DNA of 44,139 nucleotides, from contig CAVIBA010000001.1 in the NCBI GenBank assembly GCA_963640785.1, positions 14,527 through 58,665 on the forward strand, in the 5' to 3' direction. The position numbers and the translations under genes were made by a program. The DNA comes from Bulleidia sp. GTDB taxonomy: Bacteria > Bacillota > Clostridia > Oscillospirales > CAG-272. This document shows positions 4,434 to 36,090 of this stretch, piece after piece. The notes beneath the pieces were generated by a model. That model worked only from the letters and a program-made list of their open reading frames with translations. It ran no database searches and was not told the origin of the DNA. Numbering within the stretch: the first letter of the stretch is position 1; each line of letters opens with the position of its first letter.

Positions 4434-6249
4434 TTTCGCTTACCTCCTTTGCTTTTTCGCTGTTGCTTTGCATCTGTGAATCGTAAATATCGCGGTAGGC
4501 TGCGCTGATTTTCATGAGCTCGTCATGCGGAGCGCAGTCCTTTATGGTGCCGTTCTCGATGACGGCGATGCGGTCGGCGTTGCGCACGCTGGCGATACGC
4601 TGGGCTATCATTATAACAGTCGTACCGGCAAGGCGCGAGCGGAGTGCCGCCTGGAGCCGCGCCTCGGTCGAGAGGTCGAGGGCGGAGGTGGAGTCGTCAA
4701 GTATAAGTATCTCGGGCTTGCGCACCAGCGCACGCGCGATGGACATGCGCTGCTTCTGTCCGCCCGAGAGCGACGCGCCCTTCTCGGCGATGAAGGTATT
4801 GTAGCCCTCATTGAAGCCGTTTATGAAGCCGGACGCCTGCGCGACGTCGGCGGCGTCCTCGACCTCAGCGTCGGTGGCGTCGGGCTTGCCCCAGCGTATG
4901 TTGCCCGCGACGGTGTCCGAGAACAGCTCGCTCTTCTGCATGACAAAGCCCATGCGCTCGCGCAGACGGTGCACGTCCCATTCGCGGACGTCGAGCCCGT
5001 CGACGGTCACGCTGCCCTCGGTGGCGTCGTAAAAGCGCGGGATGAGGTTGACAAGCGAGGTCTTTCCGGCGCCTGTCGCGCCGATGACGGCGAGCACCTC
5101 GCCGCGGTGGACGTCAAGGTTGATGTCGTGCAGCACGGGGCGGCCGGTCGTGCCGGGGTAGCGGAAGCCGACGTTCCGGAAGGAAACGCAGACGTCCGCC
5201 GTGTCCCCCTCGCGCTCGCCCGAGCGTATGACGGGGGCGGATTCCAGCACCTCGACCACGCGGCGCGACGAAGCGCCCGCACGCGAGACGGACTGGAACA
5301 TCATCGTCACCATCATGACCGAGCTTAACACCTGCGTTATGTATGTAATCGCGGCCATGATGGAGCCGACGGACACCGTCGCGTCCGCGGCTCTGCCGCG
5401 CAGCCCGGCGATGAGAATGACGGCGATGACCGCGCCGTTCATTATAATGTTAAGTATGGGCGACATGACGGCGAATATGCGCAGAACACGGTAGTTTGTG
5501 TCGCGCAGTGCGCTGTTGGCTTTGTCGAAACGCTCGTTTTCGTATTCCTCGCGGACGTACGCCTTGACGACGCGCGCGCCGCCGACGTTCTCCTGCACAA
5601 CCGAGTTGACCTTGTCAAGCCGGGTCTGCACCTGCGAGAACAGCGGCGTGGCGCGCGAGAGCACCAGCACGAGCATGACTATGAGCACAGGCAGCGCGCA
5701 AAGCAGCACGGTGCCGAAGCCGAGGTCAAGCGTCAGCAGCATGATAGTGCCGCCGACAAAGAAAATGGGCGCGCGGACAAACATGCGTATGAGCATTTCG
5801 ACAAAGTCGGTGACAGTGGAAATGTCGTTTGTCATACGGGTGACGAGCGAGCCGGTGGTGAATTTGTCCGTCTGCTCGATGGACAGCGACATGACGCGGC
5901 CATAGGCGTCACAGCGCAGGTCGTGGCCGAAGCTCTGCGCGGCCTTGGCGGCAGTGAAGGCGCAGAATGTGCCGAAAAATCCGCCGATGACGACCAGAAG
6001 CATCATGGCCGCGCCGATGCAGATGATAATCTGCATCGAGGTATACGGCCCCTCCCCGCAGAAAAGGCGCATGAAGAACAGCGCGAGCGGTGAGTCGGCA
6101 ATGTCAGCCGAGCCGACGATGCCGCAGTCGACAATGACCGACATCAGCTTAGGCTGGAACAGATCCGCGACCACCTCGCCTATCATCATGAGCGGTGAGA
6201 GCAGCGCGAGATACCAGTAGGGACGAAGGTATTTTGCGAGTTTTTTCAT
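4426..6249 (-). CDS. ABC transporter ATP-binding/permease protein (partner half-transporter)
   Basis: 607 aa. Motifs: Walker A GATGAGKTS, signature LSGGQKQR, Walker B ILILDDSTS. An 8-nt overlap with the downstream partner indicates a heterodimeric exporter. Confidence 0.9.
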   Translation of the reverse strand: MKKLAKYLRPYWYLALLSPLMMIGEVVADLFQPKLMSVIVDCGIVGSADIADSPLALFFMRLFCGEGPYTSMQIIICIGAAMMLLVVIGGFFGTFCAFTAAKAAQSFGHDLRCDAYGRVMSLSIEQTDKFTTGSLVTRMTNDISTVTDFVEMLIRMFVRAPIFFVGGTIMLLTLDLGFGTVLLCALPVLIVMLVLVLSRATPLFSQVQTRLDKVNSVVQENVGGARVVKAYVREEYENERFDKANSALRDTNYRVLRIFAVMSPILNIIMNGAVIAVILIAGLRGRAADATVSVGSIMAAITYITQVLSSVMMVTMMFQSVSRAGASSRRVVEVLESAPVIRSGEREGDTADVCVSFRNVGFRYPGTTGRPVLHDINLDVHRGEVLAVIGATGAGKTSLVNLIPRFYDATEGSVTVDGLDVREWDVHRLRERMGFVMQKSELFSDTVAGNIRWGKPDATDAEVEDAADVAQASGFINGFNEGYNTFIAEKGASLSGGQKQRMSIARALVRKPEILILDDSTSALDLSTEARLQAALRSRLAGTTVIMIAQRIASVRNADRIAVIENGTIKDCAPHDELMKISAAYRDIYDSQMQSNSEKAKEVSENE

Positions 6250-6257
6250 GTGCGGGC

Positions 6258-6734
6258 TTATTCTCCTTCCAGACCGAGGTCTCTTGAAATGTTTTTGCGC
6301 ATACGGTTAAGCAGGGCGAGCAGCGTCTCGCTCTCCTCGGCGGTGAAGCCCTCCATGAGTATGTTGTCCGCCGCAACGGAGGCACGGTGCGAGGTCTCGA
6401 CCAGCTCGTGGCCGCGCTCTGTCAGGTGGACGCGCAGGGCGCGCATGTCGTCCTGATCAGGCACGCGCCGGACGTAGCCGAGCGACTCCAGCCGCTTGAC
6501 CGTGATACTGACCGTCGGCGTTGACAGATGGGTGCGACGCGCCAGTTCGAGCTGGGTGAGTCCGTCCTCAAAGGCGAGGTTCATCACAATGTGCCGGACG
6601 CTGAACTGCTGCATTTCGCTTTCGTTTTCGCGCATTTTCGCGGCGTACAGACGCGATATGTCGTGTATCACCATGGGCGGAGATTCCTTGATTCCGCAGG
6701 GCAGTTTCGGACGTGAAAACAGTTTTTTATCCAT
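6258..6734 (-). CDS. MarR family transcriptional regulator
   Basis: 158 aa with a winged-helix core (GLTQLELARRTHLSTPTVSITVKRLESLGYVRR..D.DDMRALRVHLTERG). It is the first gene of the exporter operon. A GAGGAG RBS lies upstream. Confidence 0.9.
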   Translation of the reverse strand: MDKKLFSRPKLPCGIKESPPMVIHDISRLYAAKMRENESEMQQFSVRHIVMNLAFEDGLTQLELARRTHLSTPTVSITVKRLESLGYVRRVPDQDDMRALRVHLTERGHELVETSHRASVAADNILMEGFTAEESETLLALLNRMRKNISRDLGLEGE

Positions 6735-22295: not shown

Positions 22296-22700
22296 CTGGG
22301 GCGCCGCCCCAGACCCCGCCAAGGGGGCTTTTTGAAAAAAGCCCCCTTGGAACCCGCAAAAACTTTCGGAAAAGGGGATGGCGGTTGGGATATAGTGAAC
22401 GGAAACCGCTCGCTCTCGGGGCGCTGCCCCGAACCCCGCTTAGGGAGCTTTTTGAAAAAAGCTCCCTAAGAACCCGCAAAAACTTTCACAAAAAGGGCGG
22501 GTTAAGGTCTGCGAACGGACGTGATGTACGGTTTTGAGCGTTCAAAACCCAACGTCCCGGCGTTTCGCAAACTTTAACCCGTCCTTTTTCAAAGTTTTCG
22601 CCCGCCTTTGGGGAGGCGGCACGGATCCAACGCCGTGTGGCGTTGGCCGCCGTCCGCAGACGGCGGAACACTCCTTCACTGCCCGCCCGCAAACGCCCCA
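22296..22700. repeat. Family-1 intergenic repeat cluster (two direct 120-bp units plus a diverged inverted unit)
   Basis: Unit: ctcggggcgctgccccgaaccccgc + hairpin ttagggagctttttgaaaaaagctccctaa + gaacccgcaaaaactttc. Hairpins start at 22320 and 22440, exactly 120 bp apart. The right half (22555-22680) is an inverted, diverged copy. The same family occurs at 34730-35560. Confidence 0.8.
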
Positions 22701-34132: not shown

Positions 34133-34355
34133 AAAAAAATGGTTCCTTTCAGGAAATTTGCCCGTGCAAACGCGATTTGTGAAGTTTCACGCGCGTTTTT
34201 TCACATAAAAATTTCAATGCCGTTGAATAACCGTCACATTGTTATTCTATACTAATACTCGAAGATTGGTTATTTATACCTGACGGTAATATGGAACCGT
34301 CATTCAGAGAAATTAAAAAATTAAAAGCCGGAAAACCGACAGGAGGTAAATGCAA

Positions 34356-34670
34356 ATGCAGATCACAGACATTAAGGTAAGAAAGTTATTCGACGAAGGC
34401 CCCATGAAGGCTATCGTCTCAGTGACCTTTGACGGTCAGCTGGCGGTTCATGACATCAAGGTCATCTACGCGCGGGAGAAGTATTTTATCGTTATGCCCA
34501 GCCGCAAGAACCCCGATGACACCTACCGCGATATCGTTCACCCCATCAACGCCCAGTTCAGAGGTATTCTTGAGTCCGCCGTCATCGGCGCTTACGAGAC
34601 CGAGCTGGCCGCTGCCAAACAGGCTGCAGAAGCCGCCGAGGCAGAGCCCGCAACCATTGAAGTTCAGTAA
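34356..34670 (+). CDS. spoVG: septation/sporulation regulator SpoVG
   Basis: MQITDIKVRKL...AIVSVTFDGQLAVHDIKVI...FIVMPSRK..D.YRDIVHPIN matches SpoVG throughout. ATG 34356 lies 9 nt after AGGAGG, while ATG 34350 is too close to it. Confidence 0.9.
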   Translation: MQITDIKVRKLFDEGPMKAIVSVTFDGQLAVHDIKVIYAREKYFIVMPSRKNPDDTYRDIVHPINAQFRGILESAVIGAYETELAAAKQAAEAAEAEPATIEVQ

Positions 34671-34691: not shown

Positions 34692-34719
34692 AAAGCCGCC
34701 CTCCGGGCGGCTTTTTTCG
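34692..34719 (+). terminator. rho-independent terminator of spoVG
   Basis: aaagccgccc-tccg-gggcggcttt followed by tttt. Confidence 0.8.
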
Positions 34720-34729
34720 TGGAGGCGCG

Positions 34730-35560
34730 GACTCGGGGCTTTGCCCCGAACCCCACTCGGGGATGCGTCTCGGGACCATCCCCGAACCCCGCTTAGGGAG
34801 CTTTTTTCAAAAAGCTCCCTAAGAACCCGCAAAAACTTTCGGAAAAGGGACGGGGTAGCGGAATAAAGCAAGCGAAACCCGCTCACTCTCGGGGCGCTGC
34901 CCCGAACCCCGCTCGGGCGGCTTTTGAAAAAGCCCCCGAGACCCCGCAAAACTTTCAAAAAAGCGTGTTAAAGTCTGCGAACGGACGTGAAAACGTTCAA
35001 GTGCGTGCGGTGCGTCATCACGTTATAGACCAGCACCGCCCTGCTTCGCGTGCGGTGTACTGTCGCGGAAAGTTAGTCCGCCTGCGGTGGGCTGCAATGA
35101 TTTAACTGATGTTTGGGCACGCCGTATGGGCGACCATCGGTCGCCCGCCGCTGTGATGCAAGGCAACGTCACTTGAGTAAAGCAAAGAATCGGCTCAAAC
35201 CAAGACTCCCTCCGGGAGGGAGGCATAGTTTACGGTGAAGCTCGCCTTCACCAATAAAGTTACTCTTCCCAGTCAGGGCGGCAACAGCGAAGCGCTTTGC
35301 CGCTGAACCATAACGCAGCGGACGAACGATTCCACCCCGTTCCGAATGGGCACCGGACGCGAAGCAGGGCGGTGCTGAACCATAACGTGATGCCGCACCG
35401 CCTGCACTTAAACGCCCAAAACCTCACGCCCCGGCGTCCCGCAGACTTTAACTCGCCCAAGTTTGTGAAAGTTTCGCCCGCCTTTGGGGAGGCGGCGCGG
35501 ATCCAGAGCCGCGCAGCGCTGGCCGCCGTCCGCAGACGGCGGAACTCCCCTACACGTGCC
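34730..35560. repeat. Family-1 intergenic repeat cluster, second locus (direct units on the left, inverted diverged unit on the right, interrupted by the 411-bp element)
   Basis: Hairpins cttagggagcttttttcaaaaagctccctaag (34792-34823) and ctcgggcggcttttgaaaaagcccccgag (34912-34940) are 120 bp apart. The right part, gactttaactcgcccaagtttgtgaaagtttcgcccgcctttggggaggcgg.., matches 22575-22680. Confidence 0.8.
34999..35409. mobile_element. 411-bp foldback / MITE-like non-autonomous element with ~52-bp terminal inverted repeats and putative 8-bp target duplication
   Basis: The left end aagtgcgtgcggtgcgtcatcacgttatagaccagcaccgccctgcttcgcg matches the reverse complement of 35358-35409 at 46/52 positions. 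It is flanked by aaacgttc (34991-34998) and aaacgccc (35410-35417). The paralogous unit at 22536-22550 reads gagcgttcaaaaccc with no insert. It has no ORF with coding character. Confidence 0.55.
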
Positions 35561-35565
35561 GCACT

Positions 35566-36090
35566 CTACACCCTTCCCCACCCGCACAGAACGCCCGTGC
35601 GGCAGAGATCGACGACGCCGAAGCTGGGCGCGCCGCCGTCGCGCGGCGCGCCGATGGAGCCAGGATTGAAAATATAGAGATTATGGGCAAGCGTCGTGAA
35701 ACCAAGTTGCGTCCCCGCGGGGATGAAGTCTTGGTACTTCACGTGCGTGTGCCCGTAAAGTAGCACATCCGCGTCCACCTCGGCCGCACGCATGATGGCG
35801 CGGTCAAGCCCGCGCTCAACACCCCGCGTGTTGCCGTGAAGCATCAGAATGTTCCGCCCGTCGAGATTTACGACAAGCTCGCACGGCGGCAGCTCGCCGC
35901 CGTCAAATCTGAACATGTCGCAGTTGCCGCGCACGGAGACGAGCGGTGTTTCACCTAAATCCACGTGCCGGAAGTCAGACAGCCCGTCGCCCAGAAATAA
36001 TACCGCGTCCGGTCGCGTCGTCTGGAGCTCGAGCGCCGCGCGTATGTTGTCCGCCCGACCGTGCGAGTCGGATAAAACCAATAGCTTCAT
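35566..36090 (-). CDS. metallophosphoesterase, YfcE/MJ0936 family
   Basis: 174 aa with the MKLLVLSDSHG, GD.., GNCD and GHTH motifs in canonical order. Its ATG overlaps the upstream stop. Confidence 0.85.
   Translation of the reverse strand: MKLLVLSDSHGRADNIRAALELQTTRPDAVLFLGDGLSDFRHVDLGETPLVSVRGNCDMFRFDGGELPPCELVVNLDGRNILMLHGNTRGVERGLDRAIMRAAEVDADVLLYGHTHVKYQDFIPAGTQLGFTTLAHNLYIFNPGSIGAPRDGGAPSFGVVDLCRTGVLCGWGRV

Follow-up and report, generated by a model that had tools for sequence, protein, structure and literature searches.

A palindromic intergenic mosaic repeat with long foldback arms, probably in decay, downstream of spoVG in a Bulleidia sp. genome

We analysed a stretch of 44,139 nucleotides from Bulleidia sp. 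(assembly GCA_963640785.1, contig CAVIBA010000001.1; hereafter the window) and found that its segment 34,946-35,477, located between spoVG and a convergent phosphoesterase gene, is a long foldback with dozens of relatives in two gut species. In our judgement the element probably forms the central part of a comparatively intact copy of a foldback-type mosaic repeat that is lineage-specific, non-autonomous and non-coding and is now decaying. The window's own genome (G000) is a draft metagenome-assembled genome (MAG) of 1.96 Mb in 211 contigs, 93% complete, and the element lies within a 62-kb contig. Its sister species G008, a Hadza gut MAG labelled "uncultured Eubacteriales", is 93-96% identical to G000 in unique DNA. 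Labels in the range G001-G010 denote congeners, and G019 is another genus of the same family.

A repeat search detected inverted-repeat arms of 64 nt at 34994-35057 and 35351-35414, which are 88% complementary (56/64) and lie 293 nt apart. An earlier sequence-only reading of the window had described a 411-bp foldback with 52-nt terminal repeats (46/52); this inverted repeat is real, and its ends represent the inner part of the 64-nt arms. The palindrome extends outward by 34963-34979/35440-35456 (17 nt, 94%) and 34946-34961/35462-35477 (16 nt, 88%). With DNA parameters, the complete 532-nt segment is predicted to form a single end-to-end foldback of -154 kcal/mol (z = -12.0, with 0 of 100 shuffles as good), while the 431-nt core gave z = -12.3 on the plus strand and -10.6 on the minus strand in comparison with shuffled sequences. 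The four interior hairpins and the two flank strings quoted by the sequence-only reading are present letter for letter. The parts of the repeat at this locus are as follows.

34731..34962, plus strand: family-1 "U" units, one partial and two full, ~120 bp each (direct repeats D1-D5; genome coverage 10-36 copies)
34963..34993, plus strand: outer-left arm (OL) of the big palindrome (inverted pairs; comparison with 24+44 other copies)
34994..35057, plus strand: left 64-nt arm, with blocks 1-11, 24-28 and 38-58 conserved and ~15 positions hypervariable
35033..35058, plus strand: hairpin motif H in the left arm, GCACCGC-N12-GCGGTGY, with a mirror copy at 35350-35375 in the right arm
35058..35350, no strand: interior mosaic of modules that other copies share, in both orientations and varying number
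35058-35095: interior module B
35118-35215: interior module C, with the GGGCGACC-ATC-GGTCGCCC hairpin
35216-35335: interior module D
interior, adjoining the right arm: small CCGTTCCGAATGGG hairpin
35351..35414, minus strand: right 64-nt arm
35415..35471, plus strand: outer-right arm (OR); both OL and the U tail are complementary to it
35472..35550, plus strand: "T" module of GC-rich hairpins (GCCGCCGTC-CGCA-GACGGCGG) (direct repeat D3 with 22596-22686; coverage)

Examination of other copies revealed a common plan. We found that 59 loci in G000 share one module order, U units - OL - arm - interior - arm - OR - T units, in which each U unit has a GC hairpin, a palindrome centred on A/T and a GCAAAAACTTTC tail (GCAAAACTTTC at the locus in the window), and the T units are GC-rich hairpins, at times in 41-bp tandem arrays. 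The full unit is an imperfect palindrome of ~530-900 bp, and each of its long arms (OL/OR plus the 64-nt arm) measures ~110-125 nt. Copy number drops inward: U/T have ~30 copies, OL/OR and arms 12-20, the interior 2-4. The orientation of the interior modules B, C and D varies, as does their number, C/C' inverted pairs are seen at times, and arm-to-arm lengths range from 218 to 760 bp. Inward of an arm comes CGCTGTCGC.. or else a small hairpin module, CCCATTCGGAA, and every combination is represented. Convergent genes flank about half of the polar loci. The mosaic seemed to favour one orientation with respect to the upstream gene (~16/20), but this was discarded, as it depended on crude open reading frame (ORF) calls and vanished in tandem gene pairs (6 vs 3). 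Separately, T arrays of up to four ~41-bp units with the hairpin GCCGCCGCC-CGCA-GGCGGCGG were noted at two G008 loci, L109 (~6300-6460) and L123 (230-420).

The distribution of this repeat is narrow. We counted ~24 copies of the arm in G000, at least 44 different arms in G008 and one in a third Hadza MAG. The remaining nine congeners possess no arms, although G002 and G010 match the H portion of the arm weakly. A 20-nt arm-core pattern, searched against 185,579 species genomes (one each), matched G008, one contig of the third Hadza MAG and two genomes, Streptosporangium and a Burkholderiaceae MAG, in which we read the match as due to chance. The same holds for its sole metagenome-contig match, which is situated inside coding sequence. 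The pattern was not found in viral contigs, nor did the 532-nt foldback match phage and plasmid records by blastn. The copy number, which the sequence-only reading had proposed to check in the genome and its relatives, identifies a multi-copy, non-coding repeat with long terminal inverted repeats, and the restricted spread of its arms implies that the family is young or narrowly distributed. The foldback might be suspected of being a chimeric palindrome formed during assembly or amplification, given that the MAG is fragmented and that some library types do contain palindromic chimeras. Yet the element lies inside a 62-kb contig, and diverged copies of the same architecture are present at many loci and in independently assembled sister MAGs, partly at orthologous places, which makes an artefact scarcely credible.

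We determined that the immediate flanks of the arms are part of the repeat itself. The 30-40 nt outside every arm are conserved (..GTCTGTGGGACGCCGGGACGG..GGTTTTRRR / CGTTTAAGTGC.., the slash marking the arm boundary) and constitute the OL/OR palindrome, i.e., the portion of the formerly described "120-bp unit" that encloses the element. All 68 arms are positioned within this one outer palindrome and no independent insertion sites were seen, contrary to the earlier view of an insertion into the 120-bp unit. That view also invoked an ~8-bp target duplication, formed by the octamers AAACGTTC and AAACGCCC. These consist of three flank bases and the first or last five bases of the conserved arm ends (CGTTY / AAACG), and they belong to the repeat unit in other copies, which speaks against a duplication on the sequence-only reading's own terms. 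Corresponding octamers in 22 complete elements match on average at 3.7/8. The 6/8 of the window copy is the maximum and arises because its left OL has lost ~14 nt (tgtacggttttgag) kept by other copies, leaving AAA beside the arm. The 10-nt flanks of the same 22 elements match at 1.2/10 as direct repeats vs 7.3/10 as inverted repeats, and in none of them does an exact direct repeat of any length abut the arms. The flanks simply continue the palindrome, and there is no target duplication at the arm ends. Apparent target duplications beside palindromic repeats may in general be such a continuation and need checking across copies.

These findings bear directly on the proposal that the arm-bounded segment of 411-421 bp is a transposable element of the miniature inverted-repeat type (MITE), inserted site-specifically into the OL/OR tip, perhaps with duplication of a CG dinucleotide, and mobilised in trans. 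Terminal inverted repeats are indeed present, 22 further arm pairs were found, and the arms show a bipartite conservation (1-11, 38-58) of the kind often displayed by transposase-binding ends. Insertion sequences (ISs) that target the hairpin loops of repetitive extragenic palindromic (REP) elements, such as IS1397 and ISKpn1, offer a precedent, and the nested phylogenetic spread of the layers (see below) would also agree with such an insertion. So would one symmetric armless centre, GGTTTTGAG-CG-TTCAAAACC, which would result if both TTTAAGTG...CACTTAAA and one CG were taken out of an occupied site. Against this stand the lack of direct-repeat flanks (the proposed octamers being arm ends), the absence of any of the 68 arms from contexts other than OL/OR, the single symmetric empty centre as opposed to many asymmetric remnants that still carry arm pieces, and the lack of clean insertion polymorphism between species ~5% apart. 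Moreover, OL/OR were never seen in a genome without arms, and no element with these ends carries an ORF. We therefore regard the MITE interpretation as rather unlikely. The part of it that stands is the non-autonomous, multi-copy nature of the repeat; the target duplication and the insertion story do not.

In agreement with the sequence-only reading, no transposase is encoded in the window, and the assembled genome contains no transposase-bearing copy with these ends. The search for longer elements delimited by the arm ends retrieved the end motif CGYTYAAGYGY only in the known arms of G000, without any associated ORF. The Y1_Tnp/RAYT family (PF01797) is absent from G000 and G008, whereas the same search was positive in five other congeners and six control genomes; it was aimed at Y1_Tnp only, other transposase families were not searched, and MAG binning tends to drop IS copies. 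Nor does the element itself encode anything recognisable: its interior was rightly described as lacking coding character, Pfam recognised neither of its two largest ORFs (66-67 aa), and a promoter/terminator scan detected nothing of note inside it.

Arms are missing from several loci, among them:

22487..22597, plus strand, window: armless OL/OR palindrome with the centre GGTTTTGAG-CGTT-CAAAACC (the "empty site" of the sequence-only reading)
C3:36871 and C5:25560: remnant junction ctgtgggACGCC / caaaacc
C125 and C29:8036: remnant junction ..gacGCCG / caacgcacacacttaaacg
C43: remnant junction ..gaCGCC / tgcacttaaacg

The paralog at 22520-22555 does lack arms, as had been noticed, but its centre still opens with CGTT, the first four bases of the arm. 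We observed no other symmetric armless centre, and its G008 ortholog has an even shorter one. All remaining copies with one arm or none are asymmetric remnants, each with its junction at a short direct repeat of the full form, and additional remnant forms join OL directly to T. The 22.5-kb paralog fits decay by deletion as well, although it is the least clear-cut case. Solo hairpins (C3:32574, C15:20323, C162:75, C165:3274 and C2:38670) consist of arm positions 1-47 joined to the reverse complement of positions 13-1; judging from their sequence, they would be the expected product of a deletion between the two direct GCACCGCC octamers held by any arm pair.

The same conclusion can be drawn from the orthologous spacer, the boundaries of which in the window are:

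34350-34670, plus strand: SpoVG gene, upstream of the element (Pfam, E 3e-32)
34694..34719, plus strand: intrinsic-terminator-like hairpin and T run (GCCGCCCTCCGGGCGGCTTTTTT), just past the spoVG stop, after which the repeat mosaic begins
35566-36090, minus strand: Metallophos_2 gene, convergent (Pfam); the T module ends 16 nt before its stop

Gene order around the element is kept throughout the genus, while the spoVG-phosphoesterase spacer measures ~900 bp in G000, 478 bp in G008 and 75-290 bp in other congeners. In G006, the next closest relative, it holds the terminator only, and in G005 a single U unit; the GCCGCCCTCCGGGCGGCTTTTTT hairpin is found in the spacers of both G008 and G006. The G008 spacer contains the same U, U, OL and T modules, and its centre reads GGTTTTGGGCGTCCCGCAGAC, i.e., what a deletion between the GGCGT repeats (..tttgGGCGTttaag.. 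and ..cccGGCGTcccgcag..) of the full form would leave. In turn, part of OL is lost in G000 and kept in G008. Two deletions from an arm-bearing ancestor explain both alleles, vs three events if the element had been inserted in G000, and we consequently read the G008 ortholog as a decay product. The expectation of further empty sites was not borne out, as none is clean and this ortholog is a deletion derivative.

We compared 13 orthologous loci in total, including those of the window element and the 22.5-kb paralog, with orthology assigned from unique flanking DNA. At these loci both species retain parts of one mosaic. Read base by base, the short alleles are composed of truncated U or T modules and microhomology junctions of 3-8 nt; together with the remnants, they yielded the junction repeats GACCCGC (C53), GGG (C77), ACGCC, GCCG, CGCC and GGCGT. 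Among the 13 loci of these species, which are ~5% apart, there was no clean empty site or new insertion. Long DNA palindromes are unstable in bacteria owing to SbcCD cleavage and slipped-strand deletion, a process observed on engineered palindromes. Here, too, centres are lost preferentially and deletion end points are located at short direct repeats, but the footprint is that of a natural repeat family in two species. In this family, microhomology deletions within long palindromes form a natural series at sites orthologous between the two species, which amounts to a genome-scale record of the erosion of cruciform-prone DNA by bacteria.

As for the arms themselves, alignment of all 68 showed that positions 1-11, 24-28 and 38-58 are nearly invariant (~46/64 positions overall), while ~15 to 18 positions are near saturation; two to three states of intermediate frequency occur at 12, 13, 17, 19, 22, 23, 29-32, 34, 36-38 and 59. 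The variable positions are not hypermutable, since the orthologous arms C122:3949 and G008 L096:4179 are identical at 62/64 positions. In another orthologous pair, C179:843 and G008 C8, whole blocks differ (GTTA..ATG vs ACGA..TTC), both being common haplotypes of the family, which is indicative of gene conversion among copies. The arm pattern would arise without selection from a few founder haplotypes that conversion and inversion between arms had shuffled. A conserved local hairpin of positions 14-20/40-46 was considered and rejected, given that position 17 is G, T or A opposite an invariant C43.

Outside the arms, a 28-nt stretch of OL (G000 C122:3910-3945 vs G008 L096:4145-4178) shows ~13 differences within otherwise ~97% identical DNA. 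It switches between the "GACGCCGGGAC" and "GGACAAACAGAAC" types, which normally lie on opposite palindrome arms, and this suggests a conversion that may have been templated by the partner arm or by another copy.

The uniformity of the arm blocks could also be taken to mean that the copies are recruited host DNA elements, e.g., insulators of transcription between convergent genes or sites bound by a nucleoid, topoisomerase or recombination protein, with the blocks under host-level selection. The ~46 nearly invariant positions beside the saturated ones, the retention of many copies at orthologous sites in two species and the location of about half of the polar loci between convergent genes would be in line with such a role, as would the binding of IHF and gyrase by REP/BIME elements (PMC3184786). 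However, copies were freely deleted in either species without visible pattern, gene conversion can keep blocks uniform without selection, and most congeners share the gene order yet do not have the elements. We find recruitment by the host improbable.

The inner conserved block of the arm, H (CAGCACCGCCCTGC..GCGTGCGGTGCCCATTCGGAA), is found in congeners as a single hairpin 40-60 nt downstream of U units, at three loci of G002 and five of G010, and is older than the foldback. At L032, L037 and L044 (G002) and L033 and L038 (G010), at ~position 1500, it takes the form CAGCACCGCCCTGC-N3-4-GCGTGCGGTGCCC-ATTCGGAA and is preceded by AT-rich sequence containing a TATAG box. The stem of two G002 copies is GCGCCGT/ACGGCGC instead of GCACCGC/GCGGTGC, i.e., two compensatory pairs. 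H may represent an independent small structured element that is conserved; Rfam returned no match at these congener loci. A strict H pattern retrieved only the own genome among 150 family genomes, but it was over-strict (G at arm position 59) and the sample did not include the relevant congeners. In 41 of 61 arms the inner pair of H is a C-C mismatch. The heptamer GCGAAGC, which forms an extraordinarily stable DNA mini-hairpin (PMC13037366), or its complement is present three times in the element (35043-35049, 35287-35293 and 35359-35365) and is invariant in the loop of H. A special enrichment of such mini-hairpins was rejected, as the motif ranks only 94th of 210 same-composition heptamers genome-wide.

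The second option of the sequence-only reading was a large structured RNA. In its present form it would be a non-coding RNA of ~420-530 nt with a long closing stem, or a structure in the 3' untranslated region of a neighbouring gene, and the extreme predicted fold stability on both strands, as well as the compensatory pairs in the H stem of G002, could be cited for it. The arms, however, do not behave as a conserved stem. Identity at the 18 variable positions is 0.61 for the 22 partner arm pairs vs 0.57 for non-partners (permutation p ~0.07), so partner arms do not carry matching states and the long closing stem is unsupported at the RNA level. We recorded 179 arm-arm mismatches in 20 elements of G000 and G008, of which 84 are transversions that pair on neither strand. 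The remainder are G-U-compatible, 61 on the strand that reads from U to T and 34 on the other, a bias in favour of an RNA that is nominally significant and spread over many positions, with counts that are not independent. This bias could reflect either a strand-asymmetric mutation bias, from which it is equally expected, or weak RNA-level selection, and a strong terminator precedes the mosaic.

Searches of other kinds gave a similar picture. No match was obtained in the window with Rfam 15 covariance models at gathering thresholds, nor in the arms or interior below E = 4 in a permissive scan, and ARAGORN detected no tRNA or tmRNA genes in the window. Aligning 11 D modules, we observed that among 31 predicted pairs 14 are invariant, 13 are broken and 2 show double changes. 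The content, order and orientation of the interior vary between copies, and the dozens of copies in two species contrast with none in close congeners. Arms that do not covary, an interior that varies and a narrow distribution leave little room for a conserved structured RNA, and we deem one very improbable.

The layers of the repeat are nested phylogenetically, with U being family-wide, T occurring additionally in G001, and OL/OR and arms confined to G000/G008. Besides 34731-34962, U units occupy 22296-22500 of the window; they gave ~18-23 hits in each of G001, G003, G004 and G005, fewer in other congeners and 34 in G019, and one of the G005 copies is the unit in its spoVG-downstream spacer. 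T is present in G001 without OL/OR. Such nesting would also result from a RAYT-less, REPIN-like system of this genus, in which a hairpin- or ssDNA-specific enzyme recognises the arm blocks, including H, and adds units at hairpin tips, creating concentric "Russian-doll" palindromes whose layers (U > T > OL/OR + arm) correspond to successive rounds. We hold this to be unlikely; if a dedicated enzyme did recognise the arm blocks, REPIN-type biology would be extended to Clostridia.

REPINs are inverted doublets of REP units mobilised by RAYT transposases (Bertels and Rainey, 2011, PMC3116915; Nunvar, 2010, PMC2817692). Like them, the repeat described here is non-coding, intergenic and multi-copy, combines two inverted hairpin-bearing units into one long hairpin, has solo derivatives, is lineage-restricted and persists at orthologous sites. 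Each arm contains H; the arms are 64 nt long (~120 nt with OL/OR) vs 20-40 nt for REPs, and they enclose a mosaic interior of 150-630 bp instead of a short spacer. Furthermore, neither arm-bearing genome encodes Y1_Tnp/RAYT, no conserved GTAG/CGTC tag was seen, and the host belongs to Clostridia rather than Proteobacteria. With bacterial MITEs such as Correia, ERIC and RUP (reviewed in Delihas, 2011, PMC3184786), it shares terminal inverted repeats, small size, the lack of a transposase, a long stem-loop fold and a preference for intergenic 3' positions. It differs from them in having no target-site duplication, independent insertion context, cognate IS or clean empty sites, and, with as much as 760 bp from one arm end to the other, it reaches or exceeds the size usual for MITEs.

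The organisation also resembles that of the BIMEs of E. coli, NIMEs of Neisseria and RIMEs of rhizobia, which are also built of distinct short repeat families in fixed order within intergenic regions, with palindromic units in alternating orientation and a unit number that varies by locus (PMC2817692, PMC3184786). There is no sequence relationship, and the modules enclose one another concentrically (U tail/T head > OL/OR > arm > interior) instead of being arranged in a row. A mosaic repeat in the sense of fixed-order modules in intergenic position at many loci is found at the 59 G000 loci, which is a likeness of organisation, not of descent. The element is a palindromic intergenic repeat most like REPINs and BIME/NIME mosaics, yet it is a member of neither the MITE nor the REPIN families, because target duplication, cognate IS and independent sites are missing in the first case and RAYT in the second. 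Taken at face value, it looks like a selfish or junk repeat of an ordinary bacterial kind, though more elaborate than most, with no sign of a new gene or RNA.

Returning to the decaying foldback-type mosaic, we infer that an inverted duplication around the older H, between U and T repeats, may have produced the foldback in an ancestor common to two or three gut species, and that this foldback would then have spread to a few dozen intergenic sites, mostly at the 3' ends of genes, most likely by means of a trans-acting protein that recognised the conserved arm blocks. Since then, copies have lost their centres or one side by deletion between direct repeats of 3-8 nt, and blocks of arm sequence have been exchanged between copies, probably by conversion and inversion. 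The copy in the window presumably has no present role beyond that of a cruciform-prone spacer between the spoVG terminator and the convergent gene.

Several points weigh against this history. No partner for the spread, whether a transposase, RAYT or another protein, came to light, and the absence of a target duplication applies to the arm ends, the mobile unit possibly having other ends farther out. The nested distribution of layers fits stepwise insertion into hairpin tips as well. A present function, rather than decay, could lie behind the contrast between conserved arm blocks and saturated positions. G000 and G008 are both fragmented MAGs, in which copies and partners may be missing. Finally, the loci compared between them were mostly picked for having arms in G008, which biases the comparison towards long alleles in G008 and short ones in G000; the absence of clean insertion alleles is, in our assessment, free of this bias.

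The repeats also have a practical consequence. At least 17 contig ends of G000 lie inside U, T, OL/OR or arm modules (contigs C16, C17, C20, C41, C43, C69, C105, C114, C124, C131, C142, C155, C161, C162, C165 and C178), and the true copy numbers consequently exceed our counts. The U/T/OL/OR/arm repeats are a main cause of fragmentation in the G000 assembly; they are a practical obstacle to assembly in this gut lineage and possible strain markers. In one of these contigs, C43, a run of 10 N was noted within a U unit at ~5960-5970, representing a scaffolding gap or a masked stretch.

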